Origin: a virus
Lineage: Duplodnaviria; Heunggongvirae; Uroviricota; Caudoviricetes
DNA length: 64,000 nt
Virus record (IMG/VR): IMGVR_UViG_3300043467_001216
Direction: 5' to 3' (one strand)
In this document: positions 36,501-53,930 of the stretch, one piece after another
Numbering within the stretch: the first letter of the stretch is position 1
Layout: each line of letters starts with the position of its first letter
Position numbers and translations under genes: made by a program
The notes under the pieces: model-generated
What the model was told of the DNA's origin: nothing
The model's input: only the letters and a program-made list of their open reading frames with translations
The model's database searches: none

Positions 36501-36582
36501 TAATTCAATATGTTCTGAAAACAGTCAGGGGTTGAATTTTAAAATTAATGTTGGAATAAATTTAAATTTATGTTGTAATTAA
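33508..36582 (+). CDS. Baseplate wedge protein (T4 gp7/P2 gpI-like), 1024 aa
   Basis: IPSQLLKNLAQTLGW...LILNSAYLFKSKGTRKSVETLMRLIG resembles the gpI/gp7 KGT motif. Confidence 0.65.
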   Translation: MAIKKYTCPPTPASGAGTFSDDLVGFQLVQGGGLTQGNFNFVTSITEKRNRNFITGTFSEPINLTNLGLSDIAQSKQVFEANFKVYPNFDLSQVTNFTMYGSLTKRISVSVQKIISYFPAAIESTFVGVNYVTGKTASNIVYNKLNNTTTFDLDITRIRNQFDIDFTNESTRNLELREIPVSPLRNLTVEYSKYLMYYQNEVCDIIFIQPTNSLTTGTLTVSVSGKPFGDNTEVFQNIVIRPNDYEVSKVFNENFDEVEKFLLNRQSTPIYTSNFTVPVENDDGTYISTKQKLTWPLNGTWNIDIMTGSFNLYLTQLNDVVENIDGYKTNLISRFLTTGSFKEFDTIGQKTEKTLQIYGRSFDETKKFIDALAYMNSVNYNVGNDIPSQLLKNLAQTLGWNTNISPITKEDFLKSVFGEKNQDKSQFSGVKTALTPDELNYQYFRNLILNSAYLFKSKGTRKSVETLMRLIGAPDALVEFNEHVYLVDRPINLRQFNSQFAQISGGTYVEQKIVLDANDVFTFQGVTYTGVTTEFSIKDVSLTRNEFPMDDYGYPIAPDDSESYYFQIGSGWFEQTPAHRAPEDIKRTSNTFVGSNPDYQTSLIPYTYGQVYLDRFRRFPFMSLGYNLTKTIDNNKSWVINEVGTRANLDGGYNSKYIVDDEKLVLNVKNIDLHMNPAQGLVYDVWYMSREVNYPIPNEGLFYIAPTHCNPTPYSTNNMKMSNTQFQSSFPNVQYPMKGGVDWTEIDPKPKRQTFFEFAQSFWKNMINVRNRQYMTNGKSMGYPTLESIYWKYLLSEKAIGVTNNNFTYDTMIQYVNGLGDYWIRLVEQMIPATTIWTTGVKYENSVFHRQKHAWRRQRGCIIVPVPCKPCATVSNFLPIDCPIQSVECSIYPSGTSNTITTFSGVLGKVINDYLTSIDKTADNCNLNALQTEWYVDLRLNDSIIIQNKFFNGSGYNVLAFSSPTNTQWYNALVVALDDLESDGYSYTLTNDGKVIIYNSICSENSQGLNFKINVGINLNLCCN

Positions 36583-38726
36583 TGAGTTGTAGTTTAAATT
36601 ATAGTCTTGTTGGTGTAACAGGTGACTGTAGTAATATTAGTGGTGGTTCGTTCAGTATTACAATTACAGGAAGTGCTCCTGATTATAGAATTGAGTGGGT
36701 AAATCCACCTTTAAGTACTGTTTTTTTAGGACCGGGAGTTACAGCGTACACTGCAACATCTTTAACCGCTGGAACGTACTCATTTTTAATTAAAGATAGT
36801 TGTATTGACCCTGAAAATCAAAGTCAGATAGCGTCAATTTATGTGTCAAGTGGGTTATGTACAACAATAACAGGTGTGACTAACACTGTTTGTGATTTAA
36901 ACAATGGTTCACTAAGTGCTTACACGCAATATGATTATGGTAGTAATTTATATTATCTATATCACACAACTTTAGGTTATATTACATCGGGAACAACGAA
37001 TTTAGTGTCAGGACGTTCATTTCAAGGGTTAAGTGCCGGAACGTATTATATGAAAGTTGTTGATAATGGTGGTTGTACTGCAACAACAAATAGTGTTATT
37101 ATCCAAGATTCGACAAATTTAGATTATGATTTGTATGTTGTTAATGATGCCGGTTGTAACGTTAATTCGGGTAAAATTTTTATTAATAATATTAATGGTT
37201 CACCACCTTACACTTATTTATGGTCGAATGGTAAAACAACATCGTCAATAAGTGGTTTAACTCAGGGGTCTTATAGTGTAACTGTTAGTGACAATTCAGG
37301 TTGTGTTGTTGTTAAAACTGCGGATGTGTTAAAAGTTCCGTTAGTTGGACAAGCGGGTCTTTTTGTGACTCAACCATCTTGTTTTGGTAATAATGGGTCA
37401 ATTGAAATAATACTTTCAGGTGGAACTCCACCATTTTTCTATTCGGGTTCAAACGGTACTACCTCAGTAACTTTTGATAGGACAATTAGTTTTAATGGAT
37501 TGGGTGCTGGTAACTTTAATTATTTTGTTCAGGATGCTGGATTATGTTCGTTTATTAGTAGTGTTGCGTTAATCACACCATCATCATTTAATATTGTGTC
37601 AATAACTACAACTAATTCATCGTGTGGTAATAATCAAGGGACATTAAATGTTAATATTTCATCAGGAACACCACCATATGTGTACAAGTTAGTTAACACA
37701 ACGGGTGTTGAGAATTCAATTAGTACGACACTACCAACATACACTTTTACACAATTGGCTTCCGATACATACACTTTTTCAATTACGGACGGTAGTGGAT
37801 GTCAATATGTTAATCAATATGAAATATTAAATGAAGAAGTATTCACATTTACTTTTGTAGTAACGGGTACAACTTGTTCTAAAAATGATGGTATTGTAAA
37901 AATTAATGTTGTTGGTGGTTCAGGCCCATATGTGTATGAATTGAATGGTGAGAGTATAGAGACAAATTTAACTACCGCAACATTTAGTTCATTACCTTCA
38001 GGTAGTTACACCGTTAATGTTACAGATACAGGTGAAAATTGTATTCAGTCTTCAACAGTGTTAGTTAATAGTTCAGAGGGTGTTGATTTCATTTATAATT
38101 CTGGTAATGCGAATTCATCAAATAATGGTTATATTCAATTGTTTATAACAAAAGGTAAAGCTCCTTACACTATAGAATGGAGTGATAATGTTAACGGTCA
38201 GACGGGTTTACTTGTAACAAGTTTGTCAGCGGGAACATATACGGCTAAAGTAACTGATAATAATGGTTGTATTAAAATTAGGACTATAGTGTTAGTTGGT
38301 GTAAATTGTGCAATTACTTATGGTATTTATAATTTATGTGATAGTGAATTTATGAATAATGGTGAATTACTTGAAAAAACACCGATATTAATGTTAAATG
38401 AAGGTTATGTGGATTTAACTGTTGATGAAAATAATTGTATTTTAAATGAAGCTACTTTTGAAGCAATTACAATTGTTAATGAGGTAACTGAAAGTTTAAT
38501 ATTTTATACGACTACATCATTAACGGACGCACCAAGTGAGACATTATTTGCAACTACTGTTAGAAATTTATTGTTGGGTTATGATGGTATTGGTAATGTT
38601 ACAATTAATACAAACACCAATAAAATTACTATCACATCTGATTGTGGTTCAGATGTTAATTTATTAGATTCTAATATCTTAGTTAAATTAAAAATCAATT
38701 ACGAAATATCTTGTGAGACAAGTTAA
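36582..38726 (+). CDS. SprB-repeat fibre/adhesin-like protein
   Basis: About seven G..PY.Y.W....GL..G.Y.V.V.D..GC units, e.g. GSPPYTYLWSNGKTTSSISGLTQGSYSVTVSDNSGC. Confidence 0.75.
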   Translation: MSCSLNYSLVGVTGDCSNISGGSFSITITGSAPDYRIEWVNPPLSTVFLGPGVTAYTATSLTAGTYSFLIKDSCIDPENQSQIASIYVSSGLCTTITGVTNTVCDLNNGSLSAYTQYDYGSNLYYLYHTTLGYITSGTTNLVSGRSFQGLSAGTYYMKVVDNGGCTATTNSVIIQDSTNLDYDLYVVNDAGCNVNSGKIFINNINGSPPYTYLWSNGKTTSSISGLTQGSYSVTVSDNSGCVVVKTADVLKVPLVGQAGLFVTQPSCFGNNGSIEIILSGGTPPFFYSGSNGTTSVTFDRTISFNGLGAGNFNYFVQDAGLCSFISSVALITPSSFNIVSITTTNSSCGNNQGTLNVNISSGTPPYVYKLVNTTGVENSISTTLPTYTFTQLASDTYTFSITDGSGCQYVNQYEILNEEVFTFTFVVTGTTCSKNDGIVKINVVGGSGPYVYELNGESIETNLTTATFSSLPSGSYTVNVTDTGENCIQSSTVLVNSSEGVDFIYNSGNANSSNNGYIQLFITKGKAPYTIEWSDNVNGQTGLLVTSLSAGTYTAKVTDNNGCIKIRTIVLVGVNCAITYGIYNLCDSEFMNNGELLEKTPILMLNEGYVDLTVDENNCILNEATFEAITIVNEVTESLIFYTTTSLTDAPSETLFATTVRNLLLGYDGIGNVTINTNTNKITITSDCGSDVNLLDSNILVKLKINYEISCETS

Positions 38727-38749
38727 TAAAATTTTAAATAAACTAAAAT

Positions 38750-39808: not shown

Positions 39809-40798
39809 ATGATTGATGAATTAGTTTTTGTATCTGCACAACCTGACATTTCGTATTTTCATTGGCAAACTAAAATTTACATATATAATTTTATTAGTAA
39901 TGGGGTTAAACCTCATCAAATTCATGTTTTGTTTGTTATTTTAAATGGTTCTCAACCTAGTGAAGAATCTTTAATGTTAAAACAATTAGGGGTTAATGTT
40001 CATCATTATGAAGATACTCGAATTGATAAACGATATATCCCGACTTTAAGACCTTTAATTTTATCTAAATGGTTAAAAGAATACCCTGAATTAGGTAAAT
40101 GTTATTTTTATCACGATTCTGATATTATTTTTAGGGAGTTACCGGATTTTGAGAGTCTATTAAATGACGATTTTAGTTATTTGTCGGACACTATCTCATA
40201 CATTGGGTATGATTACATTAAAGAATGTTCAAAACGTTATGAGGATAACCATATTCAATTATATGAAGGTGAATTATTAGACAGGATGTGTAACGTTATT
40301 GGAATATCACCTGAGATTGTTAAAGAAAATCAACTTAATTCTGGAGGTGCTCAATATCTAATTAAAAATACTGATTATTTGTATTGGGAGAAAGTTTTTG
40401 AAGATAGTGAAAATTTGTACAAAATGTTATTTAACTTTCATAAAACTCATCCCATTCAGCACGAGATTCAAATGTGGACTTCAGATATGTGGGCGGTATT
40501 ATGGAATCTTTGGTTAAGAGGTAATGAAACACGTGTCACTAAAAAATTATCGTTTTCTTGGGCTACGGACACCATAGAACAATATGAAAATAAACCGATA
40601 TTACATATGGCTGGAGTTACTTACGATTTAAGTAAAACCAAATTTTATAAAGGTGAATTTATAAATGTTAACCCACTTAAACTTTTAAGTGAGGATGATA
40701 ATTATTTTGACTACATAGAAGATAATAGTTCAACAAAAAAGTATGTGGATGTTATGAAATCATTGATAAAAAACCAAAAAACTGATTATTTATTATAA
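39809..40798 (+). CDS. GT-A-fold glycosyltransferase resembling plant HPAT (GT95) / SGT1 (GT96) peptide O-glycosyltransferases
   Basis: Collinear motifs SYFHWQT, YIPTLRP...KWL, YHDSDIIFR (DxD), GGAQYL, WTSDMWA, PILHMAG. Confidence 0.7.
   Translation: MIDELVFVSAQPDISYFHWQTKIYIYNFISNGVKPHQIHVLFVILNGSQPSEESLMLKQLGVNVHHYEDTRIDKRYIPTLRPLILSKWLKEYPELGKCYFYHDSDIIFRELPDFESLLNDDFSYLSDTISYIGYDYIKECSKRYEDNHIQLYEGELLDRMCNVIGISPEIVKENQLNSGGAQYLIKNTDYLYWEKVFEDSENLYKMLFNFHKTHPIQHEIQMWTSDMWAVLWNLWLRGNETRVTKKLSFSWATDTIEQYENKPILHMAGVTYDLSKTKFYKGEFINVNPLKLLSEDDNYFDYIEDNSSTKKYVDVMKSLIKNQKTDYLL
40787..40793 (+). promoter_or_regulatory. TATTTAT putative phage late promoter
   Basis: 17 nt upstream of ATG 40811, overlapping the end of the glycosyltransferase gene. 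Confidence 0.5.
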
Positions 40799-40810: not shown

Positions 40811-41179
40811 ATGCCAGAATCAACAAATAGGAATCAATGTGGGGTATTAACAATATTCCCAATGTCTGTTACTTGTAATTCGACAAATCCGTCGACAATA
40901 ACTGCGTCAGATGGTATTGCTAGTTTAGTTATCAATGGTGGTACGCCGCCATATTCAATAACTTGGGCTAATGGTAGTCTAACACAAACAATTACTAATT
41001 TAAGTGTTGGGTCATATACCGCAACTGTTACAGATTCAAATGGTGATTATGTCATTAAAAGTACTTGTGTGTTAAGTGTAACCACGACAACAACATCAAC
41101 CACAACAACAACAACATTACCACCTTGTGTTGATTTCTGTTTGGATTTTACACCCATTGATACGGGTGGATATTATTGA
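40811..41179 (+). CDS. Single SprB-repeat protein with poly-Thr tail (probable N-terminal half of a split fibre gene)
   Basis: GGTPPYSITWANG...NLSVGSYTATVTDSNG; TTTTTSTTTTTTLPP; ends at TGA-TAA-TAG. Confidence 0.65.
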   Translation: MPESTNRNQCGVLTIFPMSVTCNSTNPSTITASDGIASLVINGGTPPYSITWANGSLTQTITNLSVGSYTATVTDSNGDYVIKSTCVLSVTTTTTSTTTTTTLPPCVDFCLDFTPIDTGGYY

Positions 41180-41219
41180 TAATAGACGACGATAAATGAT
41201 AAATAAGATTTAAATATAA

Positions 41220-42302
41220 ATGTATTTTTTTGATTTAGATAAGTTCCATTTTAATTGTGATGGGTATTATAATGGTAAACAATCGTGGTTATCGGATGAT
41301 ACTCAAATTAAAATAATTTGGGATACAACATTAACACCAAATTGTTGGAGATTTTCTAGTACAACATATAATTTGTTTGATACTGTAATAAATATTAATC
41401 CCGCTAGTCCACCAATTAATGGGAATTGGACTTGGGTTGGTAGGGAATATGAAATAACTGCAACACAGGGTGAATGTTCAGATAATGAAGAATTAACAAT
41501 GATTGTTGTTAAAAATAACCCGTCTTGTGAATGTGATGCTAATATCACTCTTTATGGTGAAGGGGGTCAACCACCGTATCAGTATTCATTCGATAATGGT
41601 GTTACATATGGTAATTCACCATTTAAAGATGGTTTGTGTGGTGATTTAAGTTTAACAGTTAAGATTAAGGATAGTGAAGGTACAATTTTTAGTAAATTAG
41701 TTGAAATTCCGGCTCTAATAGAATCAGTTAATTACGTTATTAAGTTAACAGAAATAAGTTCAACAGTGATAACTGTAAATAATCCACGAGTTGAAGAATT
41801 TAAATATAGTGTTACTGTGACACCACCATTACCTAATGGTGTTAGTATTAATTTTAACTTAAATCTTGGAGGTACATTTGTTAAATCACCGTATTCGAAT
41901 TCGGCAACATCGTCATTTAATCCTCAAGTTAAAAAGAATGGTGTTGTAATAACAAACTATACGGATAATACTGCAACAACAACAACAACAAATACCTCAC
42001 CATCGTGTCAAGAATTTCAATTATATACTACTGAATATGAGTATAATTATACTAATTTATCGTATACTAATTCAGATACCTATGAAATTACGGTAATACC
42101 AACATATCAATTAACCTGTAGTAATCCTGCACCATCGACATTATCGTTAGGTCCTTTAAGTTTTCAACAGTCGAATACTGCTTTAAATTGTTGTAATGCT
42201 TATTTCTCAACAACAAATAAATATAGTCTTACAGGTCTAAATATTGAAGGTTGTATTTGTTGTTCGGTATCAAATTGGGAATACTTCTATACTAGAAGTT
42301 AA
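41220..42302 (+). CDS. Cys-rich fibre-like protein with one SprB-like repeat (probable C-terminal half of a split gene)
   Basis: YYNGKQSW module, GGQPPYQYSFDNG...KIKDSEG repeat; starts MYFFDL like the 38750 gene. Confidence 0.6.
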   Translation: MYFFDLDKFHFNCDGYYNGKQSWLSDDTQIKIIWDTTLTPNCWRFSSTTYNLFDTVININPASPPINGNWTWVGREYEITATQGECSDNEELTMIVVKNNPSCECDANITLYGEGGQPPYQYSFDNGVTYGNSPFKDGLCGDLSLTVKIKDSEGTIFSKLVEIPALIESVNYVIKLTEISSTVITVNNPRVEEFKYSVTVTPPLPNGVSINFNLNLGGTFVKSPYSNSATSSFNPQVKKNGVVITNYTDNTATTTTTNTSPSCQEFQLYTTEYEYNYTNLSYTNSDTYEITVIPTYQLTCSNPAPSTLSLGPLSFQQSNTALNCCNAYFSTTNKYSLTGLNIEGCICCSVSNWEYFYTRS

Positions 42303-42320
42303 AAATAAAAAAAATAAAAA

Positions 42321-44753
42321 ATGGGATATATTTTAAAAAATACAACAGGATTAATAAATAGTAAATTAACAGATACCGCAAGACAAATGTTGTCACAAGG
42401 TAAGTTTAATATTAGTTTTTTCCAAGTAGGGGATAGTGAAATGTTGTATAACACATTACCCTCGAATTATTTAATCAGTAATACTATGATATTAGAATCA
42501 GGTTTTAACGCTCAGAATTCTAGTGGTGTTCCTGAATCGAATAAACAAAACGTTAAATATCCGTATTATGTTGATGGTAATAATGGAAACACTTATGGTA
42601 TACCATATATGGATTCTGTTATAAGTCCAATTTATAATACTGCGGCTATGAGAGGTTTTTTCACAGGTGATACAAGTGTTTTACCAACTAGTTGGAGTGC
42701 ATCAACTGGTAATGATTATGTTAAAACATCAAATTATGTTGTTAATATGTCTAGTTTTACAGGTGGGACGACACTACAATTATTAAATGACTCTTGTAAT
42801 CCCGTTCAGTATACTCAATTTGAAAGGGGTGATTTTATTACGTTATACATAGATAATTTAGGTGCGTCAAATTGTGGGTGTGAAAATTTACCAACACCAA
42901 CACCAACACCGAGTATGTACTCAACACCAACACCAACCCCATCGGCACCACCATCACCAGGTAGTCCTTGTGCGTCACCTACACCTACACCATCACCTTC
43001 GGCATCTTATTGTCCCGACCCAACACCGGCACCATTAAAAACTGAATGTGTGATGTCAATGGCGTCTTGTTATTCAATATTAACGTATAGGATAGTTGAT
43101 GTGTGTGGTAATAAAATAACGTTAGATAGAACTACTCCTGACTTTTCAAATATTACATTCGTGAGTTGTTATGCGAGGGCGTTGGTTTATCCTAAAAAAA
43201 TGACTGATTTATATGATAGTATAACTCCATTGAATCATTATAATGATGATATCATTAATTTTGAATCGGTTTGTTCTCAAGATGAGTTTGACGTTAAAGT
43301 TTGGAATATGAATATTCCTTGGTCTGAAAATTTAGCTGGATTAGATTCGGGTGTTTATAAAGATTACCCACAATTTGGTTCGGTTAATTATTTGGGAACT
43401 AAAGAATATTTGGGTTATATGTCAAATAGTGGACAAACTTTTTTCATAAGTAATCAATTTAGTGCAGAAACTACGGATACGTATTATTACAATTCATTTG
43501 CGGAAATTGTTAAAGTTGAACCTGAAGAACAAAAGGCGATTGGTATAATTCATTATACAAATCAAACAATTGATTTATTCTATGGGGAAAAATTCGCGTT
43601 ACAACCATATGACCCAACGGCTCCTTATGATACTACGGGACAAGCAAGGAATTTTAAATTACATTTGCCTTGGTTAATGTGGCATAAAAATCCTGAATGT
43701 TGTATGGGTGAAACTTTTTGGGTTGACCCTCCAGGGTTTGAAGACCCTAGTGTTGTGTTATTTCAAGAACGATATATACAATCAACTAAGAATGAGGATA
43801 TGAATTCACCGGGTATTAGATATTATCATTTATGGGATACAAATATAAATCCTGATGGTTATCCTAACAGAGTTGGAAAAGTCTTCCCTGATGATAGGAT
43901 TATCATTATAGATGACGAAGAATTATTGGCTGCAATGTCTTATAAATCAAATCGAAATTGGACTTTACCGGCACCTAAATTATTTTTATCAACACCTAAC
44001 ACTTGTAATAGTTTAGGTAGTTCATTAGGTGTTTTAACAAATTCAAATGAGACTATGTTTGTTACGTATAGGTTTACAAATACAACGGCATTTACAAATT
44101 CATTACATTGTAATTATTATACAAAAATAACCGGACCTGATGTTGTTTGTAACCCTTCAAACTCTGAGAATGTTGGTGTTAGATTTAGTACAGGTTTCCC
44201 TTGTTTGGATTATTACGAAGATACGTTTAAACAAGGATTTTTTGCTGAAAAAATTGAAATTATTTGTCAAAAAGTTACAACAGGTAATCGACCACAATCT
44301 GATAGTTGGAGGGTTATTGATATGACTGATGTTTTAAGTGCAAATACAATCAATGGTTACATTACTCAGGATGCAATTACTGGTAGTACATTTGTTATTA
44401 CTAAAGAATTGTATGATGCTGCGGTAAATGATATTTATGATTTAGGTGATTATATTGATATTACACAGGAAGGTTCTACGGGACTACAATTAAACTTTGG
44501 TGATGAATATTATTTCTATGGGTCTTTAGAAACTGATATACAAGCGACCATATATGAAATGGTCTATAAACTGAATTTATCTAACTCTGAATTTCAGACC
44601 TCATCAAATCCTACGTGGAATACGGGAACAAAACCATATATTACTGAACTTGGTCTTTACGATTCTGATAAAAATCTTATGATTGTATCAAAACTACAGT
44701 CTCCCGTTTTAAGACAAGGGATTCAACAGTTTTTAATTAAATTTGATTTTTAA
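42321..44753 (+). CDS. Tail fibre-attachment/baseplate protein (P2 gpH N-terminal-like) with Pro/Thr insert
   Basis: N-terminal SKLTDTARQMLSQG..NISFFQVGDSE and C-terminal YITELGLYDSDKNLMIVSKLQSPV resemble the gpH/DUF3751-type fold; internal PTPTPTPS stretch. Confidence 0.55.
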   Translation: MGYILKNTTGLINSKLTDTARQMLSQGKFNISFFQVGDSEMLYNTLPSNYLISNTMILESGFNAQNSSGVPESNKQNVKYPYYVDGNNGNTYGIPYMDSVISPIYNTAAMRGFFTGDTSVLPTSWSASTGNDYVKTSNYVVNMSSFTGGTTLQLLNDSCNPVQYTQFERGDFITLYIDNLGASNCGCENLPTPTPTPSMYSTPTPTPSAPPSPGSPCASPTPTPSPSASYCPDPTPAPLKTECVMSMASCYSILTYRIVDVCGNKITLDRTTPDFSNITFVSCYARALVYPKKMTDLYDSITPLNHYNDDIINFESVCSQDEFDVKVWNMNIPWSENLAGLDSGVYKDYPQFGSVNYLGTKEYLGYMSNSGQTFFISNQFSAETTDTYYYNSFAEIVKVEPEEQKAIGIIHYTNQTIDLFYGEKFALQPYDPTAPYDTTGQARNFKLHLPWLMWHKNPECCMGETFWVDPPGFEDPSVVLFQERYIQSTKNEDMNSPGIRYYHLWDTNINPDGYPNRVGKVFPDDRIIIIDDEELLAAMSYKSNRNWTLPAPKLFLSTPNTCNSLGSSLGVLTNSNETMFVTYRFTNTTAFTNSLHCNYYTKITGPDVVCNPSNSENVGVRFSTGFPCLDYYEDTFKQGFFAEKIEIICQKVTTGNRPQSDSWRVIDMTDVLSANTINGYITQDAITGSTFVITKELYDAAVNDIYDLGDYIDITQEGSTGLQLNFGDEYYFYGSLETDIQATIYEMVYKLNLSNSEFQTSSNPTWNTGTKPYITELGLYDSDKNLMIVSKLQSPVLRQGIQQFLIKFDF

Positions 44754-44754
44754 T

Positions 44755-45354
44755 ATGAGAAAAACTTTAAAAGAAAGTCCCAAAGTATTGGGACTTGATA
44801 TCTCAACAAAAACTATTGGATGGGCGTTGTTCGAAATTAAAAGTGGTGATTTGTTAGAATTGACACACATATCGCCAGTCCCAAAACCAAAAGAAGAGTG
44901 TAAAATTAAGGAATTGTTACTTAAAAGTGACATTTTTAAAACAAAGTTAGAACAATATAAAGGATTAGGAATTACTAAAATAATAATAGAAGAACCATTA
45001 TTAAATTCAAATAATATCCGAACAGTTCAAACGTTATTAAGATTTAATAGTTTTGTTTGTAAAGTAATTTACGACACATTAGGTATTATACCGGATTTCA
45101 TTTCAACATATGAGTCAAGAAAAAATGCTTTTCCTGAATTAGTTCAAGAAAATGATAAAGGTAAATTTGTTCTATTTGGTGGGTTACCTAAAGATATTGA
45201 TAAGAAAATGATTGTTTGGGAAAAGGTTGCAAAACGAGAACCACAGATACAGTGGTTATATACTAAAAATAATACATTGAAAAAAGAAAATTTTGACCAA
45301 ACAGATGCTTATTGTTGTGTTTTAGGATTTATGAAACAACTTAAAATTTGGTAA
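44755..45354 (+). CDS. ruvC: RuvC-like Holliday junction resolvase
   Basis: VLGLDISTKTIGW, IIIEEP, DQTDAY acidic catalytic motifs; start placed at the ATG after the upstream stop. Confidence 0.75.
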   Translation: MRKTLKESPKVLGLDISTKTIGWALFEIKSGDLLELTHISPVPKPKEECKIKELLLKSDIFKTKLEQYKGLGITKIIIEEPLLNSNNIRTVQTLLRFNSFVCKVIYDTLGIIPDFISTYESRKNAFPELVQENDKGKFVLFGGLPKDIDKKMIVWEKVAKREPQIQWLYTKNNTLKKENFDQTDAYCCVLGFMKQLKIW

Positions 45355-45368
45355 ATTATTTTAATAAT

Positions 45369-45400: not shown

Positions 45401-45455
45401 ATGCCCTTTTGTTTTGTAATTAGGAAATGTTTTACATAACAAATATAATAAAAAA

Positions 45456-48095
45456 TTATTGTAATTCTATAAATCCTGTACCGTCTTGTAGTATAATGTA
45501 ATCACCTGTCTGTAGTAATAATAAATTACCTGTCAATGTTGTAGGTGTTGGTGTTGGTGTACTTGAAGGTGTGTATGATGGGGTTTGACTTGGTGTGTAT
45601 GATGGGGTTTGTGTGTTAGTTGGTGTTATACTATTTGTTGGGGTTTGTGTGTTAGTTGGTGTAATACTATTTGTTGGTGTAATACTATTTGTTGGGGTAA
45701 CAGTGTTAGTTGGTGTGATGGTGTTAGTTGGTGTGATGGTGTTAGTCGGAGTTACAGTTCTTGTCGGTGTTTGAGTATTGGTTGTTGTTGGTGTTGGTGT
45801 CGGTGTTGGACAAGGGTTTGATGAAGTACAAGATAAGCAATCAAAATCACCATCAACTTGAGGGTAAACAGGTTTAGTGTTATCCCAAACAATGGTTGGT
45901 GAACCTATTGCTGGATATGTCCCAACTTTATAACAATATCCATTAGTTGCGACAACAACATAATTAGCGTCAACTCCGGCATATGTGATAGGAATACTAA
46001 TAACATCATATGTGACGTATGTCCCACAACAAGGGTATGCTTCGGCAATAACATAAATAGTTGTTGGTGTTGGTGTTATTGTATTTGTTGGCGTTTGGGT
46101 AGGTGTTTTAGTTACTGTTGATGTTATTGTATTTGTCGGTGTTATTGTATTTGTTGGCGTTTGAGTCGGAGTTTCTGTGTTTGTTGGTGTTTGGGTGATA
46201 GTATTTGTAGGTGTTTGAGTGATAGTATTAGTAGGGGTTTGGGTGATAGTATTAGTAGGGGTAATTGTGTTAGTTGGTGTAGGGGTATTTGTGGGTGTTT
46301 CGGTGTTAGTTGGTGTAATTGTGTTAGTTGGTGTTGGGGTATTTGTAGGTGTTTCAGTGTTAGTTGGTGTAATTGTGTTAGTTGGTGTTTGGGTTGGAGT
46401 TTCCGTAACAGTTGATGTTATTGTGTTAGTTGGTGTTTGGGTTGGAGTTTCTGTATTCGTTGGTGTAATTGTATTTGTTGGAGTTTGGGTTGGAGTTTCT
46501 GTATTCGTTGGTGTAATAGTATTCGTTGGTGTTTGTGTTGGGGTTTCTGTATTAGTTGGTGTAATTGTATTTGTTGGTGTTTGAGTTGGGGTTTCTGTGT
46601 TCGTAGGTGTAATTGTGTTAGTTGGTGTTTGAGTTGGGGTTTCTGTGTTCGTAGGTGTAATTGTGTTAGTTGGTGTTTGTGTTGGGGTTTCAGTATTAGT
46701 TGATGTTATCGTATTAGTTGGTGTTTGAGTTGGGGTTTCAGTGTTCGTAGGTGTAATTGTATTTGTTGGTGTTTGAGTTGGTGTTTCAGTGTTCGTGGGT
46801 GTAATAGTATTCGTTGGAGTTATAGTATTCGTTGGGGTTTGTGTTGGTGTCTCAGTATTAGTTGATGTTATCGTATTAGTCGGTGTTTGAGTTGGGGTTT
46901 CAGTGTTCGTAGGTGTAATTGTATTTGTAGGCGTTTGTGTTGGAGTTTCAGTGTTAGTCGGCGTTTGTGTTGGGGTTTCAGTGTTCGTAGGTGTAATTGT
47001 ATTTGTTGGGGTAATTGTGTTGGTCGGAGTTTGTGTTGGTGTCTCAGTATTAGTTGATGTTATTGTATTTGTTGGTGTTTGTGTTGGTGTCTCAGTATTA
47101 GTTGATGTTATTGTATTTGTTGGTGTTTGAGTTGGAGTTTCAGTAACAGTTGGGGTTATTGTGTTAGTTGGAGTTTGAGTTGGTGTTTCAGTATTAGTTG
47201 ATGTTATCGTATTTGTTGGAGTTTGAGTTGGTGTTTCAGTATTAGTTGATGTTATCGTATTTGTTGGAGTTTGAGTTGGTGTTTCAGTTACTGTTGGAGT
47301 TTGTGTTGGAGTTTCAGTGTTAGTTGATGTTATTGTGTTAGTCGGCGTTTGAGTTGGTGTTTCTGTGTTCGTAGGTGTAATTGTATTTGTTGGGGTAATT
47401 GTGTTAGTTGGAGTTTGAGTTGGTGTTTCAGTGTTCGTAGGTGTAATTGTATTTGTTGGGGTAATTGTGTTGGTCGGAGTTTGTGTTGGTGTTTCTGTGT
47501 TCGTAGGTGTAATAGTATTCGTTGGTGTTTGTGTTGGTGTCTCCGTATTAGTTGGTGTGATAGTATTAGTTGGTGTAGGGGTTTGTGTTGGAGTTTCAGT
47601 ATTAGTTGGTGTGATAGTATTAGTTTGAGTAGGAGTTTGTGTTTGAGTTTCAGTATTAGTCGGTGTAATTGTGTTAGTTGGGGTTGGTGTTTGTGTTGGT
47701 GTCTCCGTATTAGTTGGTGTAATAGTATTGGTTTGAGTTGGTGTTTGTGTATACGTAGGTGTAACTGTTGGTGTTTGTGTATACGTAGGTGTAACTGTTG
47801 GTGTTTGAGTATTTGATGGTGTAACTGTAGGAGTGATTGTTGGGGTAGGGGTTGGTGTTTTGGTTAATACTAAGTAACAATAAACTATTTCAAATCTTTC
47901 ACAATCGTGTGAAATTATTCTAACACCAACGGCAGGTGCGGTGTTAAATAATGGGGGTAAATATATTTGATTAGTCGGAGGTATGTTTGTGTCAACTGTT
48001 GCAACTAAGATACATTGATTACCGAATACGTCACATACATATATATTATATGGGAATGATAATCCTGTAATATCTGTAATCTGAATTGATGTCAT
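45456..48095 (-). CDS. Mucin/extensin-like Thr-Pro repeat protein, putative virion fibre (879 aa)
   Basis: ~75-aa Cys-containing N-domain, ~600-aa TPT repeat, ~80-aa Cys-rich domain, second TP block, C-terminal LLLQTGDYIILQDG motif; own TATTTAT motif upstream. Confidence 0.75.
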   Translation of the reverse strand: MTSIQITDITGLSFPYNIYVCDVFGNQCILVATVDTNIPPTNQIYLPPLFNTAPAVGVRIISHDCERFEIVYCYLVLTKTPTPTPTITPTVTPSNTQTPTVTPTYTQTPTVTPTYTQTPTQTNTITPTNTETPTQTPTPTNTITPTNTETQTQTPTQTNTITPTNTETPTQTPTPTNTITPTNTETPTQTPTNTITPTNTETPTQTPTNTITPTNTITPTNTETPTQTPTNTITPTNTITPTNTETPTQTPTNTITSTNTETPTQTPTVTETPTQTPTNTITSTNTETPTQTPTNTITSTNTETPTQTPTNTITPTVTETPTQTPTNTITSTNTETPTQTPTNTITSTNTETPTQTPTNTITPTNTITPTNTETPTQTPTNTETPTQTPTNTITPTNTETPTQTPTNTITSTNTETPTQTPTNTITPTNTITPTNTETPTQTPTNTITPTNTETPTQTPTNTITSTNTETPTQTPTNTITPTNTETPTQTPTNTITPTNTETPTQTPTNTITPTNTETPTQTPTNTITPTNTETPTQTPTNTITPTNTETPTQTPTNTITSTVTETPTQTPTNTITPTNTETPTNTPTPTNTITPTNTETPTNTPTPTNTITPTNTITQTPTNTITQTPTNTITQTPTNTETPTQTPTNTITPTNTITSTVTKTPTQTPTNTITPTPTTIYVIAEAYPCCGTYVTYDVISIPITYAGVDANYVVVATNGYCYKVGTYPAIGSPTIVWDNTKPVYPQVDGDFDCLSCTSSNPCPTPTPTPTTTNTQTPTRTVTPTNTITPTNTITPTNTVTPTNSITPTNSITPTNTQTPTNSITPTNTQTPSYTPSQTPSYTPSSTPTPTPTTLTGNLLLLQTGDYIILQDGTGFIELQ
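45538..45810 (-). repeat. Second Thr/Pro repeat block (TPTNSI/TPTNTQ/TPSY)
   Basis: Visible in both the sequence and the translation. Confidence 0.9.
46061..47866 (-). repeat. Coding tandem repeat of TPTNTI / TPTNTE / TPTQ modules
   Basis: Visible GT-rich repeat on the + strand; third-codon positions vary between units while the peptide is kept. Confidence 0.95.
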
Positions 48096-48108
48096 AATAT
48101 ATTTAATA

Positions 48109-48115
48109 ATAAATA
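48109..48115 (-). promoter_or_regulatory. TATTTAT putative phage late promoter (minus strand)
   Basis: ATAAATA on the + strand, 13 nt upstream of the mucin-like gene start. Confidence 0.55.
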
Positions 48116-48138
48116 TTTCAAAGTTGATTTATTTAAAA

Positions 48139-50307
48139 TTAAGGATAAACATAAGTTGAATTTATAATACCGGCAGTACTACTCCACACATCAATATAAT
48201 TACCTGTTGTGTCAAAATTTGAAATTTGTTGTGCTTGTATTTTATATTGTAATGGTGACCAACTTGTAACAACAACATTATGTGAAAATACTGTTTGTGC
48301 GTAATTATTACCTGATTGATATGTATGATTTTCCCAATCCCAAGTTCTACCTGATAACGAAGGTATTAGTGTGTTAGTAAAACCTGATGCTGGGTATGTG
48401 AGGTTAGAATAAGTATTGTAAATAACTAAACTACCTGTAAATGATGAGTTGGTTCTGGTACTTGTTTGTGATTTTAAACCATTAACGTCAGTAAATGGTG
48501 TTGTTCGTCTATAGCCTGTTACGTTACGAATGTAACCTGTTAAATTTCTAGTTGCGTTTGCGTTGATGGCTAAGTTTTGGTTATTACAATTAGAACAAGT
48601 GTTAGGACAAACGTAGTTATTAGAAATTAACGGTGTTGTAATATACATATAGTAATTAAATCCTGGGTATGGAGTTGTGTTACCTGAACTAATTACTGAA
48701 GAATAATGGAATTCCAATTCTTCATAACTTGGTGTTGAGTCACCACAAGTTGGTGTTCCGTTATAGACTGATAATCTTATGAATTTATAATAACTGTATG
48801 TTAAACTATTACTTGAGTATGCACCACAAGACGCGACTATTGATGCTTGAGCTGCCGACCAATCAGTGTAATATACGTTTAAATCCGACAAACTAGTAAA
48901 GTAAATTTCAACCTTTGTTGTTGCGGTTTTAACAACTTTTATTTGTTGACCTGGAATGTTAACACATACACCTGAACGACCCGGACCACAACTTGTTATT
49001 TCGTTAAAATTGTCATATAATGAATAACCTGTGTCTAAACCAAGTAATTTGGTGGTATTATCGGTTGCTATGTTATTAAAAATTGAACTTGTGTTGAGTT
49101 TAACTAATGTAGATTCGGTAAAACCTGTAGTTTCATTAACACTACAACCACTGACAGAATAATTGACTTTGTATTTACCACAAGTATCAGGTCCTAATAT
49201 TTGAATAGTTGATGCTTTAATTTTATAAGGTTTGTTTCGATATGAATCTAAACAAGTTTTAGTTGCGGTAGGTAACGTTGAACAACCAAAGGAGTATTTC
49301 CAAGTAGTTGAATTATTACTTGGGTTAGGTGTGACATTAATAATTATTTTATCGTTATTATTTACCGTTAATCCTGTTAATACGGTTATTTTTTTAAAAT
49401 TAGTGTAATAATATAATTTAGGCCAAGTAGTTGGGGTAAAATCGACACTTCCTGCGTCATCACCAACCCTAATTTCCTCAAGTAAAATTGGTTGAGGGTA
49501 AGAGCTACCTACAAAGGTTAATTTAAGAGTGTCATATATACTTAAACCCTCAAATTTCCAAATAAATGCTTTTGTTGTTGAGTTTATAACGAAAACTGCG
49601 GATAATGAATCAGGTGCTATACTACTATCAGTATATACGAATTCTTTATAATGAGTATATAGTGGGTCAGGACCTCCGGTTCCGTTATTACAATTATAAG
49701 GTGAAACAATAACACTACTCGAACAACCTGTTAAATTACAAGAAATTATGTTACCTGTACCTCCCGTTGAAGAAAATTTAACACCATTTAGTTCGACTTT
49801 TCTAATTCTTGAGGTGTAAGTACCGTCAATTAAGATTGGTGAGTTTACATTATTTATAGGGTGGGTATATTGGTATTCACCTGAAAATAACGTACCTTTA
49901 CCTGATGTAAATGCTAAACTAGTTGAAGGGGCTGGGCCATACCAATCAATTACGAAGTTACTTATGTCATTATCACAAGTTCCGGATAAACCATTCACGT
50001 TAATAAGTGAAGTTAAGTTATTGGTAACACCACTTAATCCTAATGTACAAGTGTAACAAACATTATTATTACTAACAGCTATATCAACATAACAAAAACT
50101 TACAGGGTCAAAAATACGAATATTTTCAGTACCATCAGGAACTAAAAAAGTGAAAGGACAATTTGCACCTGTTATTGATGTTGTTGGTATTGTTCTAACA
50201 AAGATTCCTGGATTTAGGGTTGATACAGGATTACTATAAACACTTAACGTTGGACCTAGTGGTGATGTACCCGTGTTACTTAGACAAGCCGATACGGAAA
50301 ATGACAT
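48139..50307 (-). CDS. Putative tail fibre/receptor-binding protein, paralog A (722 aa)
   Basis: Beta-rich, Cys-rich; N-terminal half clearly homologous to the adjacent 50326 gene. Confidence 0.6.
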   Translation of the reverse strand: MSFSVSACLSNTGTSPLGPTLSVYSNPVSTLNPGIFVRTIPTTSITGANCPFTFLVPDGTENIRIFDPVSFCYVDIAVSNNNVCYTCTLGLSGVTNNLTSLINVNGLSGTCDNDISNFVIDWYGPAPSTSLAFTSGKGTLFSGEYQYTHPINNVNSPILIDGTYTSRIRKVELNGVKFSSTGGTGNIISCNLTGCSSSVIVSPYNCNNGTGGPDPLYTHYKEFVYTDSSIAPDSLSAVFVINSTTKAFIWKFEGLSIYDTLKLTFVGSSYPQPILLEEIRVGDDAGSVDFTPTTWPKLYYYTNFKKITVLTGLTVNNNDKIIINVTPNPSNNSTTWKYSFGCSTLPTATKTCLDSYRNKPYKIKASTIQILGPDTCGKYKVNYSVSGCSVNETTGFTESTLVKLNTSSIFNNIATDNTTKLLGLDTGYSLYDNFNEITSCGPGRSGVCVNIPGQQIKVVKTATTKVEIYFTSLSDLNVYYTDWSAAQASIVASCGAYSSNSLTYSYYKFIRLSVYNGTPTCGDSTPSYEELEFHYSSVISSGNTTPYPGFNYYMYITTPLISNNYVCPNTCSNCNNQNLAINANATRNLTGYIRNVTGYRRTTPFTDVNGLKSQTSTRTNSSFTGSLVIYNTYSNLTYPASGFTNTLIPSLSGRTWDWENHTYQSGNNYAQTVFSHNVVVTSWSPLQYKIQAQQISNFDTTGNYIDVWSSTAGIINSTYVYP

Positions 50308-50325
50308 AATGTTATTATTTTAAAT

Positions 50326-52557
50326 TTATATTAAATAGTTTGAATTTGAGTAATTTAGAGTTCCGTTTAAGTATTCGTAAACTAGAGTAATTTCACGCGG
50401 AAAAACTAGATTTCCTGATTCATTAATTCGATGTGCGTAAATACGAAAATTATCAGCAACTGCGGTTTCGTCAAAAAATTCCCATACGTAATAATAGTTA
50501 TAATTACGTTGAATATTTTGAGAGGTTAAACTATCACCATTGTTGGTAATTAATCCAAGATTAGGGCAAGTAACTCCTGATAACGAAGGTATTAAGGTGT
50601 ATGATGTACCCGATGCTGGTATTGTATAATTTTGATAGAAACTGGTATAGAATCCACCGGATAAGGTTGCTCCTGTTTGTGTGGAAACAGATGAGGACAT
50701 ACTTCTAAAAAAATATATTCCGTTATTTCTGATAGCACCAACATTTGTTGTTCCTGTATAATTAAATGTTGAACTTGAATAAGTGTTAACGTAAAAATCA
50801 ACCAATTGATTTTGGTATCCGATACAATTTAAATCACAATCATCATATGTGATTCCTGCTGATATCATTGGTATTGTGAATTGTATAAAGTAATTACTAC
50901 CAGTTGTACCTGTTGTTACTATAGAACTTTGGTGAAAATTAATCGAATTATTAGGAATACCGTCACCACAAGGGGTTATACCTGTTGCGGTGGTATATTC
51001 TAACGTAAAATATCTATAATATCCTATGTTAGTATTGTCACCTGAAAATGGTGATATAGATGGTACGACAAAATTTTTATAATTATCGTATATCATAGTT
51101 ATTGGTGTTAAACTATTTGAAGTTACCTTAAATAGTGTTGGGGTTTTATTATATGTTATATCTATACCTTCACCCAAGTTGTTACATGAGCGGCTTTGAG
51201 TCCAAGTTGGATATTGACACGTTAATTGGTTGAAATAAATGGAATTTGTCCCCCAATCAGGAGTTGGACCATTATAATTAATATAGTTATTAGTTCTATC
51301 AATTCGTGCGTAACCGGCATTATTATAAAAACTTCCGGCGTATTGATAAATTGTTGTTCCTGTTATTTCAGACATATTACAACCACTAAGAGACATTGCA
51401 ATTATTGAAACACAACTAGTGTCGAGTACGGAAATAGTAGACTCAACGATTTTCCAAGTGTAGGAAGTGTTACCTGAATCTGTTGGGACTTCATCTGGTA
51501 TACATATATCGCAATTAACTGTGTCCAAACAACCACAATAAAATGTCCAACTTGTTTGAGTTGTTGAGGTTGACGGTGTTACTTCTATTAATATAGCGTC
51601 ACCGGCATTTACAGTTAATCCACTTAAAGTTGTGACTTTACCAAAATATTCGGCGGTGGAGGCTGATTTAGGGAACGTTGTTGAATTGAAATTATTTGAT
51701 GTTAAATCAGAACCAACTTCCCAATATTCTAAAATTAATGGTTGTGGGTATGCGGAACCACTAAATGTTAATTTGAGTTTATCTGGAACTGAAAAACCTT
51801 TAAATTTCCACGGAAAATACTTAGTACCTGCTGATAACTCAAAGGTGGTGGTTAACGGTTCGGGTGTTATACCACCTGTTGTTGCTGAATAAAAGAATTT
51901 ATGTTCATACTGTGGTAAATCAGAACTATCACCACCATTATCACAATTTAAAGCGGTGACTTCTATTGATGGTAAACAATCCATTTCGGCTAATATGTAT
52001 CCTGGTATTTCAGTTTTTGAGAAAAGAACACCGTTAAGTTCAATTTTTTCCAATCTTGGTTCAAAAGTTCCTGATGTTGATAAAGGTGATGAAGTACCAA
52101 CTAATGGGTGTGTATATAGATATGGGGCAAACATAGTTCCTTTACCTGAACTAAATTTAAATATCGGATTTAAAGGGTCTGAAACATTATACCAATTAAT
52201 AAGATAGTTGGATATACTAGCATCACAACTACCTGTAATATCACCGGCAACAATTTTACCAACAGATGGTGTTACGTAACTGTTAAAATTTAAATCACAA
52301 GTAACACATAAATCATTATTACTAACGGGTATGTCGGTATAACAAAAATTATCAATATCGTATAATCTAATTGTTGTTGTACCATCAGGAAGTACTAAAA
52401 TATAAGGACAATTACCACCTGTAATCTCTGAACTTGGGACTGTTGTTACAAACACCCCTAAGTTAGATGGTGATACTGGGTTACTGTATACGGAAAGTGT
52501 TGGTGATAATGTATATGACCCTACATAATTTAAACATGTTGATGCTGAAAATGACAT
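50326..52557 (-). CDS. Putative tail fibre/receptor-binding protein, paralog B (743 aa)
   Basis: MSFSASTCL...PTLSVYSNPVS start shared with paralog A; shared FSSGKGT.F...Y.Y.HP and K.ELNGV.FS motifs. Confidence 0.6.
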   Translation of the reverse strand: MSFSASTCLNYVGSYTLSPTLSVYSNPVSPSNLGVFVTTVPSSEITGGNCPYILVLPDGTTTIRLYDIDNFCYTDIPVSNNDLCVTCDLNFNSYVTPSVGKIVAGDITGSCDASISNYLINWYNVSDPLNPIFKFSSGKGTMFAPYLYTHPLVGTSSPLSTSGTFEPRLEKIELNGVLFSKTEIPGYILAEMDCLPSIEVTALNCDNGGDSSDLPQYEHKFFYSATTGGITPEPLTTTFELSAGTKYFPWKFKGFSVPDKLKLTFSGSAYPQPLILEYWEVGSDLTSNNFNSTTFPKSASTAEYFGKVTTLSGLTVNAGDAILIEVTPSTSTTQTSWTFYCGCLDTVNCDICIPDEVPTDSGNTSYTWKIVESTISVLDTSCVSIIAMSLSGCNMSEITGTTIYQYAGSFYNNAGYARIDRTNNYINYNGPTPDWGTNSIYFNQLTCQYPTWTQSRSCNNLGEGIDITYNKTPTLFKVTSNSLTPITMIYDNYKNFVVPSISPFSGDNTNIGYYRYFTLEYTTATGITPCGDGIPNNSINFHQSSIVTTGTTGSNYFIQFTIPMISAGITYDDCDLNCIGYQNQLVDFYVNTYSSSTFNYTGTTNVGAIRNNGIYFFRSMSSSVSTQTGATLSGGFYTSFYQNYTIPASGTSYTLIPSLSGVTCPNLGLITNNGDSLTSQNIQRNYNYYYVWEFFDETAVADNFRIYAHRINESGNLVFPREITLVYEYLNGTLNYSNSNYLI

Positions 52558-52584
52558 AATATTATTATTTTTATTTTATCTTAA

Positions 52585-53712
52585 TTAAGTTGCTGGTGAA
52601 TATATGTAAGAATAACCTGATGAGTCACAATTACCCGGTAACGGGGTTGAAGTTGGTGTTTGTGTTTGTGTAGGGGTAAAACTTGGTGTATTTGTTTGTG
52701 TAGGGGTAAAACTTGGTGTATTTGTTTGTGTAGGTGTTTGAGTTGGAGTAAAACTTGGTGTAGGTGTTTGTGTAGGTGTTTGAGTTTGTGTATTTGTTTG
52801 TGTAGGTGTTTGAGTTGGTGTTTTTGATGGGGTTATCGTTTGTGTTGGGGTTTGAGTTGGTGTTTTTGATGGGGTTATCGTTTGTGTTGGGGTTGGCATT
52901 GGTGTTGTTTGACAAAAACTACAACCACCTAGATTAGAAAAACCTAATGAGTTTGAATTTAATCTTATCGAATTACCCCCAATAATGTCGGTTGTTAATC
53001 CAATATATGATATACATTTAGTATCACCGTCAACAAGGGCGTTAAATACCATATATTTAGTTATTGGTGTTCCATTTGGAACAATTAAAACGTCGGTTGT
53101 TGAGTAAGTTGTGTTAGGGTCGTTACAATCACTAAATTGTTTACTAGTAGGACAATTAAAGTTAGTGTTGATTGTGTTAAATGTTACGTCACCGTTAAAT
53201 GTGTTATCTCTATTAACAGGTTTTGATGTTGTTGGTGTTTGTGTTGGTGTTTGTGTTGGACTTGGTGTTACATTATTTACGGTTACATCAACGTTAAGTA
53301 AACCACAAAAATCGGTACTTGTTGGTGTTGGTGTTGGTGTTTTGGTTTGTGTAGGTGTTTGTGTAGGTGTGACAAAATTAACGGGTACACAGTCAAAAAA
53401 AGAATTAAAATCTAAAACAGAACAGTTTACAGTTGGTGTTGGTGTTGGTGTAGGACAAGTACCTGATGATAAGTAACCACTAAATAAATCGGGGCAACTT
53501 GAGCTACAAGGTGATTTTCCAGATAAAAGACAAGTTCCGTTTAGCACATTTGATAAACACCATTGAGTTGTTCCTGTGTTAAAATAGATATAATATCCGT
53601 TGGATTGACCTGACCACGAATCACGACCGTTGTAAGTTCCTGAAGAATTATATATACCATTATATGTTGAAAAACTTGTATTACTTATACAATATGTAGA
53701 TGGACAACTCAT
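52585..53712 (-). CDS. Thr/Pro-rich Cys-rich fibre-like protein (375 aa)
   Basis: YNGRDSW module, CPTPTPTPT blocks and a ~90-aa C-terminal TPTQT repeat. Confidence 0.65.
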   Translation of the reverse strand: MSCPSTYCISNTSFSTYNGIYNSSGTYNGRDSWSGQSNGYYIYFNTGTTQWCLSNVLNGTCLLSGKSPCSSSCPDLFSGYLSSGTCPTPTPTPTVNCSVLDFNSFFDCVPVNFVTPTQTPTQTKTPTPTPTSTDFCGLLNVDVTVNNVTPSPTQTPTQTPTTSKPVNRDNTFNGDVTFNTINTNFNCPTSKQFSDCNDPNTTYSTTDVLIVPNGTPITKYMVFNALVDGDTKCISYIGLTTDIIGGNSIRLNSNSLGFSNLGGCSFCQTTPMPTPTQTITPSKTPTQTPTQTITPSKTPTQTPTQTNTQTQTPTQTPTPSFTPTQTPTQTNTPSFTPTQTNTPSFTPTQTQTPTSTPLPGNCDSSGYSYIYSPAT

Positions 53713-53717
53713 TTATT

Positions 53718-53930
53718 TTATGATATAATTGTTTGGTTAATACACCCATTTTCATCTTCAACTTTTAGGGTGTAATCATCTTGATTTGTTAATACGTTTG
53801 GTATGTCAAATGAATACGGTAGAGTTGAAGTTGTGCCGATATAGACACATAAAGTAACAGGGTTGTCACATAAAAATATATTATAAGGTGTTGTACCTGT
53901 TATGTTGTTTATTGTTACTACTTTGGGCAT
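53718..53930 (-). CDS. Small protein homologous to N-domain of the mucin-like protein
   Basis: ITG..PYNI..CD.....C pattern shared with the N-terminus of 45456..48095; TATTTAT motif 17 nt upstream. Confidence 0.7.
   Translation of the reverse strand: MPKVVTINNITGTTPYNIFLCDNPVTLCVYIGTTSTLPYSFDIPNVLTNQDDYTLKVEDENGCINQTIIS

Follow-up and report, generated by a model that had tools for sequence, protein, structure and literature searches.

To our knowledge, mycobacteriophages are the only phages for which experiments have demonstrated glycosylation of the phage's own particle, and in them it blunts antibody recognition. According to Freeman et al. (2023), the glycosyltransferases of phages Che8, Corndog and Myrna reportedly modify the phages' own capsid and tail-tube subunits. 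Virion glycosylation by phage enzymes is also cited as known for mycobacteriophages in two papers (PMC12363180, PMC12582341). In plants and algae, SGT1, which is a peptidyl-Ser alpha-galactosyltransferase, and HPAT1-3/RDN1/PLENTY, which are hydroxyproline (Hyp) O-arabinosyltransferases (PF23452), act directly on the peptide hydroxyls of Pro-rich, repetitive structural proteins. HPATs are GT8-related enzymes of the GT-A type in glycosyltransferase family GT95, and SGT1 belongs to GT96 and needs Hyp in its substrate (PMC4908140). Here we describe a phage gene whose predicted product resembles these plant enzymes. The gene lies in a 64,000-nucleotide stretch of DNA (the window), which corresponds to bases 103522-167521 of the 173,656-base IMG/VR record IMGVR_UViG_3300043467_001216. 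The record is 59% complete according to CheckV, which implies a phage of about 290 kb, and its GC content is about 31%. The source is a giant (jumbo) freshwater phage, and its SprB repeats point to a host within the Bacteroidota.

39809..40798, plus strand: candidate peptide Thr O-glycosyltransferase of the GT-A type (soluble, 329 amino acids, PHROG 4417), with DSD at residues 103-105 (nucleotides 40115-40123) and His266 (nucleotides 40604-40606)

This HPAT/SGT1-type enzyme probably glycosylates Thr residues in Thr-rich tracts of the phage's own virion proteins. It is likely that the phage coats its particle with sugars, because in unrelated phages the enzyme family has been gained and lost together with Thr-rich tracts on proteins of the head, tail and fibres. 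Support comes mainly from the family as a whole, and less from the source phage itself.

A sequence-only reading of the window had pointed to a DxD glycosyltransferase at this position among tail and fibre genes, and both the motif and the fold bear it out. The protein matches PHROG 4417, a family of unknown function, at 9e-66. It has no sequence match in Pfam, NCBIfam or PDB by single-sequence searches, and a 60-sequence profile gave nothing meaningful either. The family comprises 1984 proteins at 90% clustering and 845 representatives at 50% clustering. Homologues are present in 77 deposited phage genomes, mainly those of Lactobacillus, Enterococcus, Staphylococcus and Lactococcus phages, and in one Chryseobacterium phage among them. 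Across an alignment of 60 homologues (32-68% identity), D105, H266 and eight more residues are invariant, and D103 is conserved in at least 90%. H266 is a candidate for the C-terminal metal-binding His found in GT8 enzymes. The enzyme has no hydrophobic segment at its N or C terminus, and its first strand begins at residue 6. In longer homologues, the PHROG 4417 domain is fused to PF11397 (N-acetylglucosamine (GlcNAc) transferase), GT2, GT6 or O-FucT domains, which is the pattern expected of one step in a multi-sugar pathway.

The AlphaFold2 model of the enzyme comprises a single Rossmann-like GT-A domain (pLDDT 97, pTM 0.93). In a fold search of AlphaFold/Swiss-Prot, the top match is Arabidopsis SGT1 (TM-score 0.64, E = 1.5e-9). 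HPAT, RDN1 and PLENTY proteins score 0.59-0.61, and galactinol synthases and other GT8 enzymes are lower, at 0.40-0.51. A search of the ESM Atlas places an algal HPAT (0.72) above GT8 (0.60), and the SGT1 and HPAT proteins are the nearest folds over the whole length of the enzyme (0.59-0.72). The enzyme is therefore predicted to be a GT-A glycosyltransferase that depends on a metal and belongs to a phage family not previously described. It would work like the GT95 and GT96 enzymes, to which its model is nearest, though it is no demonstrated member of either. We file it as GT95/GT96-like rather than as a member because profile searches do not reach the Pfam HPAT family. Genome searches with PF23452 (E up to 10) and with PF23741 (DUF7164) gave no match, and both were silent in control genomes as well. 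In two related viral clusters of the Atlas, PF23452 is carried by 10% of the members. Unlike SGT1 and HPATs, which are membrane-anchored and belong to the secretory pathway, the phage enzyme is predicted to be soluble and cytoplasmic and has no membrane anchor. Its putative acceptor is Thr, rather than Ser or Hyp, and it lacks a profile-level sequence match to the plant families. The ESM Atlas search also returned proteobacterial proteins that combine PqqD, a peptide-binding recognition element of ribosomally synthesized and post-translationally modified peptides (RiPPs), with an HPAT-like fold (TM-score 0.69-0.71 to the phage enzyme). Their architecture hints at peptide-glycosylating RiPP enzymes that share this fold.

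Homologues of the enzyme are found within one to three genes of poly-Thr open reading frames (ORFs) in all five distant phages considered, which are Enterococcus phiFL2B, Lacticaseibacillus R3.3, Staphylococcus vB-SscS-F1, Lactobacillus Iacchus and Chryseobacterium MA9V-3. The bearers of poly-Thr include major head and major tail proteins, and the tracts are often C-terminal tails that lie outside the family profiles. In phiFL2B, the homologue gp49 adjoins gp48, a match to the major-tail PHROG whose last 27 residues form a Thr/Ser tail. A similar terminal tail is present on gp43, the major head protein, and when all frames of the 36.8-kb genome are considered, poly-Thr tracts occur in gp43 and gp48 only. 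In R3.3, poly-Thr is likewise present on head and tail proteins, and in Iacchus two poly-Thr ORFs are located directly upstream of the homologue. Poly-Thr ORFs are near to the homologue in vB-SscS-F1 and MA9V-3 as well. In the deposited phiFL2B record (GQ478085.1, 23316-24880), the label "major tail protein" is attached to gp49, the glycosyltransferase homologue. The gp49 and gp48 labels look swapped relative to sister records.

The coupling is exact among siphophages. In 27 IMG/VR loci that were taken by their tail-tube core alone (65-100% identity), the enzyme adjoins in 12 of 12 loci with a poly-Thr tail and in none of the 15 without one (Fisher 5.8e-8). The capsid ORF carries a tail too in all 12 tail-bearing loci. 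On the tail-tube tree, the enzyme/tail state changes four times, and at least three of these changes are forced by well-supported branches. The reverse test used viral loci picked only by nine consecutive Thr codons (n = 118, 1.0 Mb), with a poly-Asn pattern as control (n = 107). The enzyme is present in nine of the poly-Thr loci and in no control locus (p = 0.0036), and in eight of the nine a co-oriented poly-Thr ORF directly precedes it. The partner that is conserved across the family, as judged from gene neighbourhoods, is poly-Thr and not the Thr-Pro repeat. No GT2 or GT1/GT4 genes are present in eight complete or near-complete genomes of poly-Thr phages. These small phages therefore probably have no glycosyltransferase of their own other than the PHROG 4417 enzyme, which would then be the one acting on the peptide. 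This suggests that PHROG 4417 enzymes can probably act as initiating glycosyltransferases.

In the window, the enzyme lies within a plus-strand operon that opens with baseplate genes, continues through very large unannotated ORFs, the SprB/Hoc-like Ig protein and the enzyme, and ends at 44753. Beyond the strand switch, a minus-strand block (45456-53712) comprises four genes, and a primase-like gene is next. The relevant genes are as follows.

20553..22917, plus strand: baseplate wedge genes, gp25-like and gp6/J-like (PF04965, PF04865 and baseplate PHROGs), the first genes of the operon ending at 44753

36582..38726, plus strand: 714-amino-acid SprB-repeat, Ig-like surface-type protein (PF13573 SprB at 1.5e-25; Hoc-like and virion structural PHROGs), upstream of the enzyme

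40811..41179, plus strand: 122-amino-acid protein, the nearest candidate acceptor, with a SprB/Hoc-like Ig domain (phrog_2973, Hoc-like, 1.2e-5), a 12-residue poly-Thr/Ser tract (residues 91-102, nucleotides 41081-41116) and a short stub

41220..42302, plus strand: 360-amino-acid protein, the C-terminal part of a split fibre-like gene, aligning to residues 119-429 of the gene in relative L013 (E = 4.5e-45)

42321..44753, plus strand: 810-amino-acid protein that closes the fibre-like operon, with a 48-residue Pro/Thr/Ser linker (residues 191-238, nucleotides 42891-43034)

44743-45354, plus strand: RuvC-like resolvase gene with a TTG start, overlapping the end of the 810-amino-acid gene by 11 nucleotides and last of the plus-strand block before the strand switch

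45456..48095, minus strand: 879-amino-acid protein with a 76-residue N-terminal domain, a (Thr-X)n tract (residues 77-686, nucleotides 46038-47867), a Cys-rich 65-residue domain, a Thr/Pro stretch (residues 752-862, nucleotides 45510-45842) and a short C-terminal segment

48139..52557, minus strand: two paralogous proteins of 722 and 743 amino acids, rich in Cys, Thr, Ser and Asn and without Thr-Pro repeats, located between the two minus-strand repeat genes and given for context only

52585..53712, minus strand: 375-amino-acid protein with three (Thr/Ser-X)n tracts (residues 115-131, 149-161 and 274-354)

The four genes for which repeats of hydroxyamino acids and Pro had been proposed (starting at 40811, 42321, 45456 and 52585) are all present with such repeats. 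These are real coding features, because they fall within long open frames of a genome with 31% GC, appear as arrays detected by TRF, and recur as the same tracts in orthologues. In L013, the orthologue of the 879-amino-acid protein has 745 amino acids and 137 [TS]P[TS] motifs, and that of the 375-amino-acid protein has 323 amino acids and 26 motifs. The 714-amino-acid protein provides context for a fibre or decoration module. The 122- and 360-amino-acid ORFs, which are separated here by a 40-nucleotide gap with stops, correspond to one 430-amino-acid gene in L013, in which a Thr-rich stretch joins the Ig domain to a C-terminal domain. A short form of 127-131 amino acids is found in other relatives too, which indicates a natural split at the Thr-rich linker. 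The 810-amino-acid protein has conserved orthologues, most of which carry an extra poly-Thr insertion. When it is modelled with 39 orthologues, the linker is disordered, and the model as a whole is poor (pLDDT 51, pTM 0.36). This protein has no annotated homologue; its sole PDB profile match is the linker of a glycoside hydrolase, and its neighbours in the Atlas belong to viral clusters without a name. The 722- and 743-amino-acid paralogues have no family match, and their only match, a weak one, is to a 735-kb uncultured megaphage.

The main repeat of the 879-amino-acid protein alternates Thr and X strictly over 583 consecutive residues, with no phase slips and a single TT dipeptide, and the X positions are filled by P, N, I, Q, E or S. 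It is an unusually regular period-2 polymer, encoded by DNA repeats of 48 and 144 nucleotides. Its composition (residues 77-680) is 50% Thr and 17% Pro, with no Asp. The sequence-only reading had remarked that this repeat lacks N-x-S/T sequons, Asp and the Bacteroidota O-glycosylation motif. All three counts are indeed zero: shuffled repeats contain 29 sequons on average and 16 at the least, and the motif D-(S/T)-(A/I/L/V/M/T) does not occur anywhere in the 879-amino-acid protein. However, the lack of sequons is trivial, because Asn always falls in the X phase of the tract. Sequon absence was therefore rejected as a sign of selection.

Among jumbo-phage relatives, 80 related loci in which the enzyme is 50-71% identical were sampled. 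Thr-Pro ORFs are present at 78 of these loci and poly-Thr ORFs at 43. A Thr/Pro or poly-Thr ORF is no more than two genes from the enzyme at 72 of the 80, and poly-Thr is mostly at gene offsets +1 to +3. The predicted co-occurrence of enzyme and repeats across relatives is clear in siphophages (12/12 versus 0/15) but ambiguous within the jumbo clade.

Glycosylation genes also occur elsewhere in the genome. A scan of the rest of it, of the kind that the earlier reading had proposed, reveals two further glycosyltransferase clusters, but neither a prolyl hydroxylase (PF13640) nor an epimerase (PF01370) is found in the 173-kb record (59% complete), in which the only dioxygenase is of the PhyH type.

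G000:C1 ~41000-53500 (L009 5370-17322), outside the window, minus strand: sugar-modification island with three to four GT2 genes, a GT1-like gene and tailoring genes

G000:C1 58829-76101, outside the window: Thr-Pro proteins of 1073, 462, 388 and 3795 amino acids, with PF11397, GT11 and GT25 genes directly after them

In the island, one GT2 protein is bifunctional (504 amino acids). The tailoring genes include two CmcI-type sugar O-methyltransferases, a hexapeptide acyltransferase, a PhyH 2-oxoglutarate dioxygenase and a DegT aminotransferase that is apparently split into two overlapping ORFs, and a PhoH gene is interspersed. In the second cluster, the matches are to PF11397 (1.2e-58), GT11 (8e-24) and GT25 (2e-9). 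The GT25 gene is followed by genes of 294 and 571 amino acids, which look glycosyltransferase-like by motif only, and then by a 213-amino-acid Thr-Pro protein, and the cluster spans G000:C1 58829-82238. Tail sheath-like and tube-like genes come after it, at about 93-98.5 kb. The genome as a whole has at least nine glycosyltransferase-type genes, in addition to methyl-, acetyl- and aminotransferases. PF11397, whose Pfam name is "Glycosyltransferase (GlcNAc)", is presumably the Skp1 hydroxyproline GlcNAc-transferase family, GT60 in CAZy. GT60 enzymes start mucin-type O-glycosylation on the Thr-rich mucins of protists (PMC8724618), and Trypanosoma cruzi mucin repeats are of the T8KP2 type (PMC5994713). 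In relatives L385 and L386 (17265-22730), the slot after the SprB-like gene is occupied by a PF11397 gene and homologues of the 294- and 571-amino-acid genes, which stand in place of the PHROG 4417 enzyme. In neither relative do the 10 kb downstream of this slot contain a Thr-Pro or poly-Thr ORF.

For the acceptor residue, donor, timing, anomeric outcome and effect, we infer the following course. Late in infection, the soluble DxD enzyme would bind a nucleotide sugar made by the host or the phage in the cytoplasm. It would transfer the sugar to Thr hydroxyls in unstructured Thr-rich tracts, before or during virion assembly. The best-supported candidate acceptor is the poly-Thr tract of the adjoining 122-amino-acid Ig-domain protein. 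Thr/Pro linkers of the neighbouring fibre-like proteins, which rank second in support, would probably be acceptors too, and the 610-residue (Thr-X)n rod of the 879-amino-acid protein, which ranks third, possibly so. The stereochemistry would be retaining, by analogy with the GT8 group. Other phage glycosyltransferases (GT60-like, GT11, GT25 and the island enzymes) may start or extend glycans on other Thr-Pro proteins, and phage enzymes may also tailor them. Such modification might produce linkers that are stiff, protease-resistant, hydrated or shielding.

A number of points weigh against this proposal. Most GT8-like enzymes extend sugars, rather than starting on peptide. The PF23452 (HPAT) profile does not match the enzyme even at E up to 1, and matches only two of 60 relatives, at E = 0.09 or worse. 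The sequence-only idea of an HPAT/SGT1-type enzyme acting on virion proteins is upheld by folds, siphophage co-variation and poly-Thr enrichment, but not by this profile. In the jumbo clade, enzyme and tracts are only weakly associated (p = 0.067 for poly-Thr and 0.036 for Thr-Pro, with kinship ignored). When loci are anchored on the upstream 1024-amino-acid gene, 10 of 42 have no enzyme within 10 kb, and seven of these 10 keep Thr-Pro ORFs. Five of the contigs were re-checked; the enzyme is elsewhere in one, and both it and GT2 are absent from four, one of which is 120 kb; the completeness of these four is just 20-41%. In enzyme-less contigs (60-120 kb), the orthologue of the 810-amino-acid protein retains its linker. 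Thr-Pro tracts are also found on 11 of 141 ORFs of the source genome and may be ordinary linkers that are independent of the enzyme. Comparison by tblastn of the 810- and 722-amino-acid proteins with annotated phages gave nothing useful, and the Thr-Pro proteins are putative virion components at best. Perhaps, then, the enzyme modifies poly-Thr tags only, and the Thr-Pro and (Thr-X)n tracts are spacers, comparable to the Pro-Thr linkers of bacterial glycoside hydrolases, that are unmodified or otherwise modified, so that the picture of a mucin fibre does not extend to the 879- and 375-amino-acid proteins. Poly-Thr is the partner conserved across phyla, Thr-Pro linkers exist without the enzyme in relatives and are spread over the source genome, and the only PDB match of the 810-amino-acid profile is of the linker type. 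However, Thr-Pro ORFs are nearby at almost all enzyme-bearing jumbo loci, a GT60-like gene directly follows other Thr-Pro proteins of the source genome, and the relatives' contigs are incomplete (17-41%). We regard this restriction to poly-Thr as unlikely. The densely glycosylated Thr-Pro fibres that had been envisaged are less well supported than a role on poly-Thr: some relatives have Thr-Pro linkers but no enzyme, and the four minus-strand proteins and the 810-amino-acid protein are no more than putative virion components.

Alternatively, the enzyme might be a real glycosyltransferase with a non-protein acceptor, such as DNA bases, lipopolysaccharide, capsule, teichoic acid or a lipid carrier, and Thr genes might be adjacent by hitch-hiking in mosaic structural modules. 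Judging from literature titles, DNA or host glycans are the substrates of many phage glycosyltransferases. The sugar-modification island adjoins nucleotide-metabolism genes (dUTPase, exonuclease), and the Iacchus homologue is beside a glycerophosphodiester phosphodiesterase gene, not in a classic morphogenesis block. Yet the association follows the poly-Thr tract and not the module; two poly-Thr ORFs adjoin the enzyme even in Iacchus. Tails on two separate genes, for capsid and tail tube, come and go with the enzyme at least three times, and loci selected by poly-Thr are enriched for it. The absence of a membrane segment and the nearest folds, which are peptide or protein-glycan enzymes, also make a non-protein acceptor quite improbable. 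A catalytically dead virion component, structural or chaperone, that merely retains the glycosyltransferase fold would fit the "major tail protein" label that some records give it (phiFL2B gp49), and activity is known for no member of PHROG 4417. However, the DxD Asp and C-terminal His are invariant in the 60 homologues, the domain is repeatedly fused to active-type glycosyltransferase domains, and the phiFL2B label looks swapped with that of gp48, the major-tail PHROG match. We consider a dead enzyme very improbable.

Glycosylation of the phage's own Thr-rich tracts, the reading we prefer, resembles the mycobacteriophage systems in that the glycosyltransferase gene is in or beside structural genes. 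It is in a baseplate-opened operon here, and adjoins the major tail gene in siphophages. The siphophage relatives also resemble those systems in their candidate Ser/Thr acceptor tracts on capsid and tail-tube proteins. In contrast, the tracts of the source phage are on Ig-domain and fibre-like proteins, often as internal linkers, and not on identified capsid or tube genes. The host phyla differ as well (Bacillota and Bacteroidota, versus Actinomycetota). In protist mucins modified by GT60, Thr runs are broken by K/A/Q-P, as in the phage tails, and the PF11397 gene of the source genome follows the Thr-Pro giants. However, the protist pathway is in the Golgi, the window enzyme is not GT60, and the PF11397 gene is outside the window. 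The serine-rich-repeat adhesin system employs GtfA/B and the GT8 enzyme GlyE, whereas the phage has neither a GtfA/B pair nor an accessory Sec system. GlyE extends primed GlcNAc, whereas the small phages have no recognisable glycosyltransferase besides the PHROG 4417 enzyme. Secreted glycoside hydrolases have O-glycosylated Pro-Thr linkers, and giant viruses have fibrils or capsids that are glycosylated by virus-encoded enzymes. These systems are like the phage in having Pro/Thr linkers between domains or their own glycan machinery, but they are secretory or eukaryotic-viral. No comparable system was found in the literature searched for tailed Bacteroidota phages, nor was any paper found that ties the PHROG 4417 family, SGT1/HPAT-like enzymes or Thr-rich capsid tails to phages.

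A broader interpretation is possible, although we hold it to be doubtful. The source phage might encode a complete multi-enzyme, cytoplasmic pathway of the mucin type, with two unrelated initiators (PHROG 4417 and GT60-like), elongation by GT11, GT25 and GT2, and tailoring by amination, acetylation and O-methylation. Its substrates would be about a dozen Thr-rich linker proteins, including the 3795-amino-acid protein and the 600-residue rod. PHROG 4417 might then be a phage-wide writer of poly-Thr tags, from Enterococcus prophages of 36 kb up to Bacteroidota phages of 300 kb, and, in prokaryotes and viruses, the sister family of the plant extensin glycosyltransferases.

If the enzyme does glycosylate virion Thr, it represents a second, unrelated and far wider system of enzyme plus tag, present in phages of Enterococcus, Staphylococcus, Lactobacillus, Lactococcus and Chryseobacterium and in hundreds of uncultured freshwater jumbo phages. 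Modelling of virion surfaces and the reading of phage proteomics and cryo-EM densities would change, and the assessment of immunogenicity and stability of therapeutic Enterococcus and Staphylococcus phages would be affected. A short, portable poly-Thr acceptor tag and a single soluble enzyme for cytoplasmic O-glycosylation would be useful in glyco-engineering. The family would also supply the first viral or bacterial structural relatives of plant GT95 and GT96 that have a testable peptide substrate.

Some proteins of the phage share their N termini while otherwise looking unrelated. The 339-amino-acid ORF at 38750 and the 360-amino-acid ORF at 41220, both on the plus strand, begin with MYFFDL. 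The 879-amino-acid protein and the 3795-amino-acid giant (G000:C1 64714) have a similar short, Cys-containing N-terminal domain. These shared N termini may represent a common attachment module.

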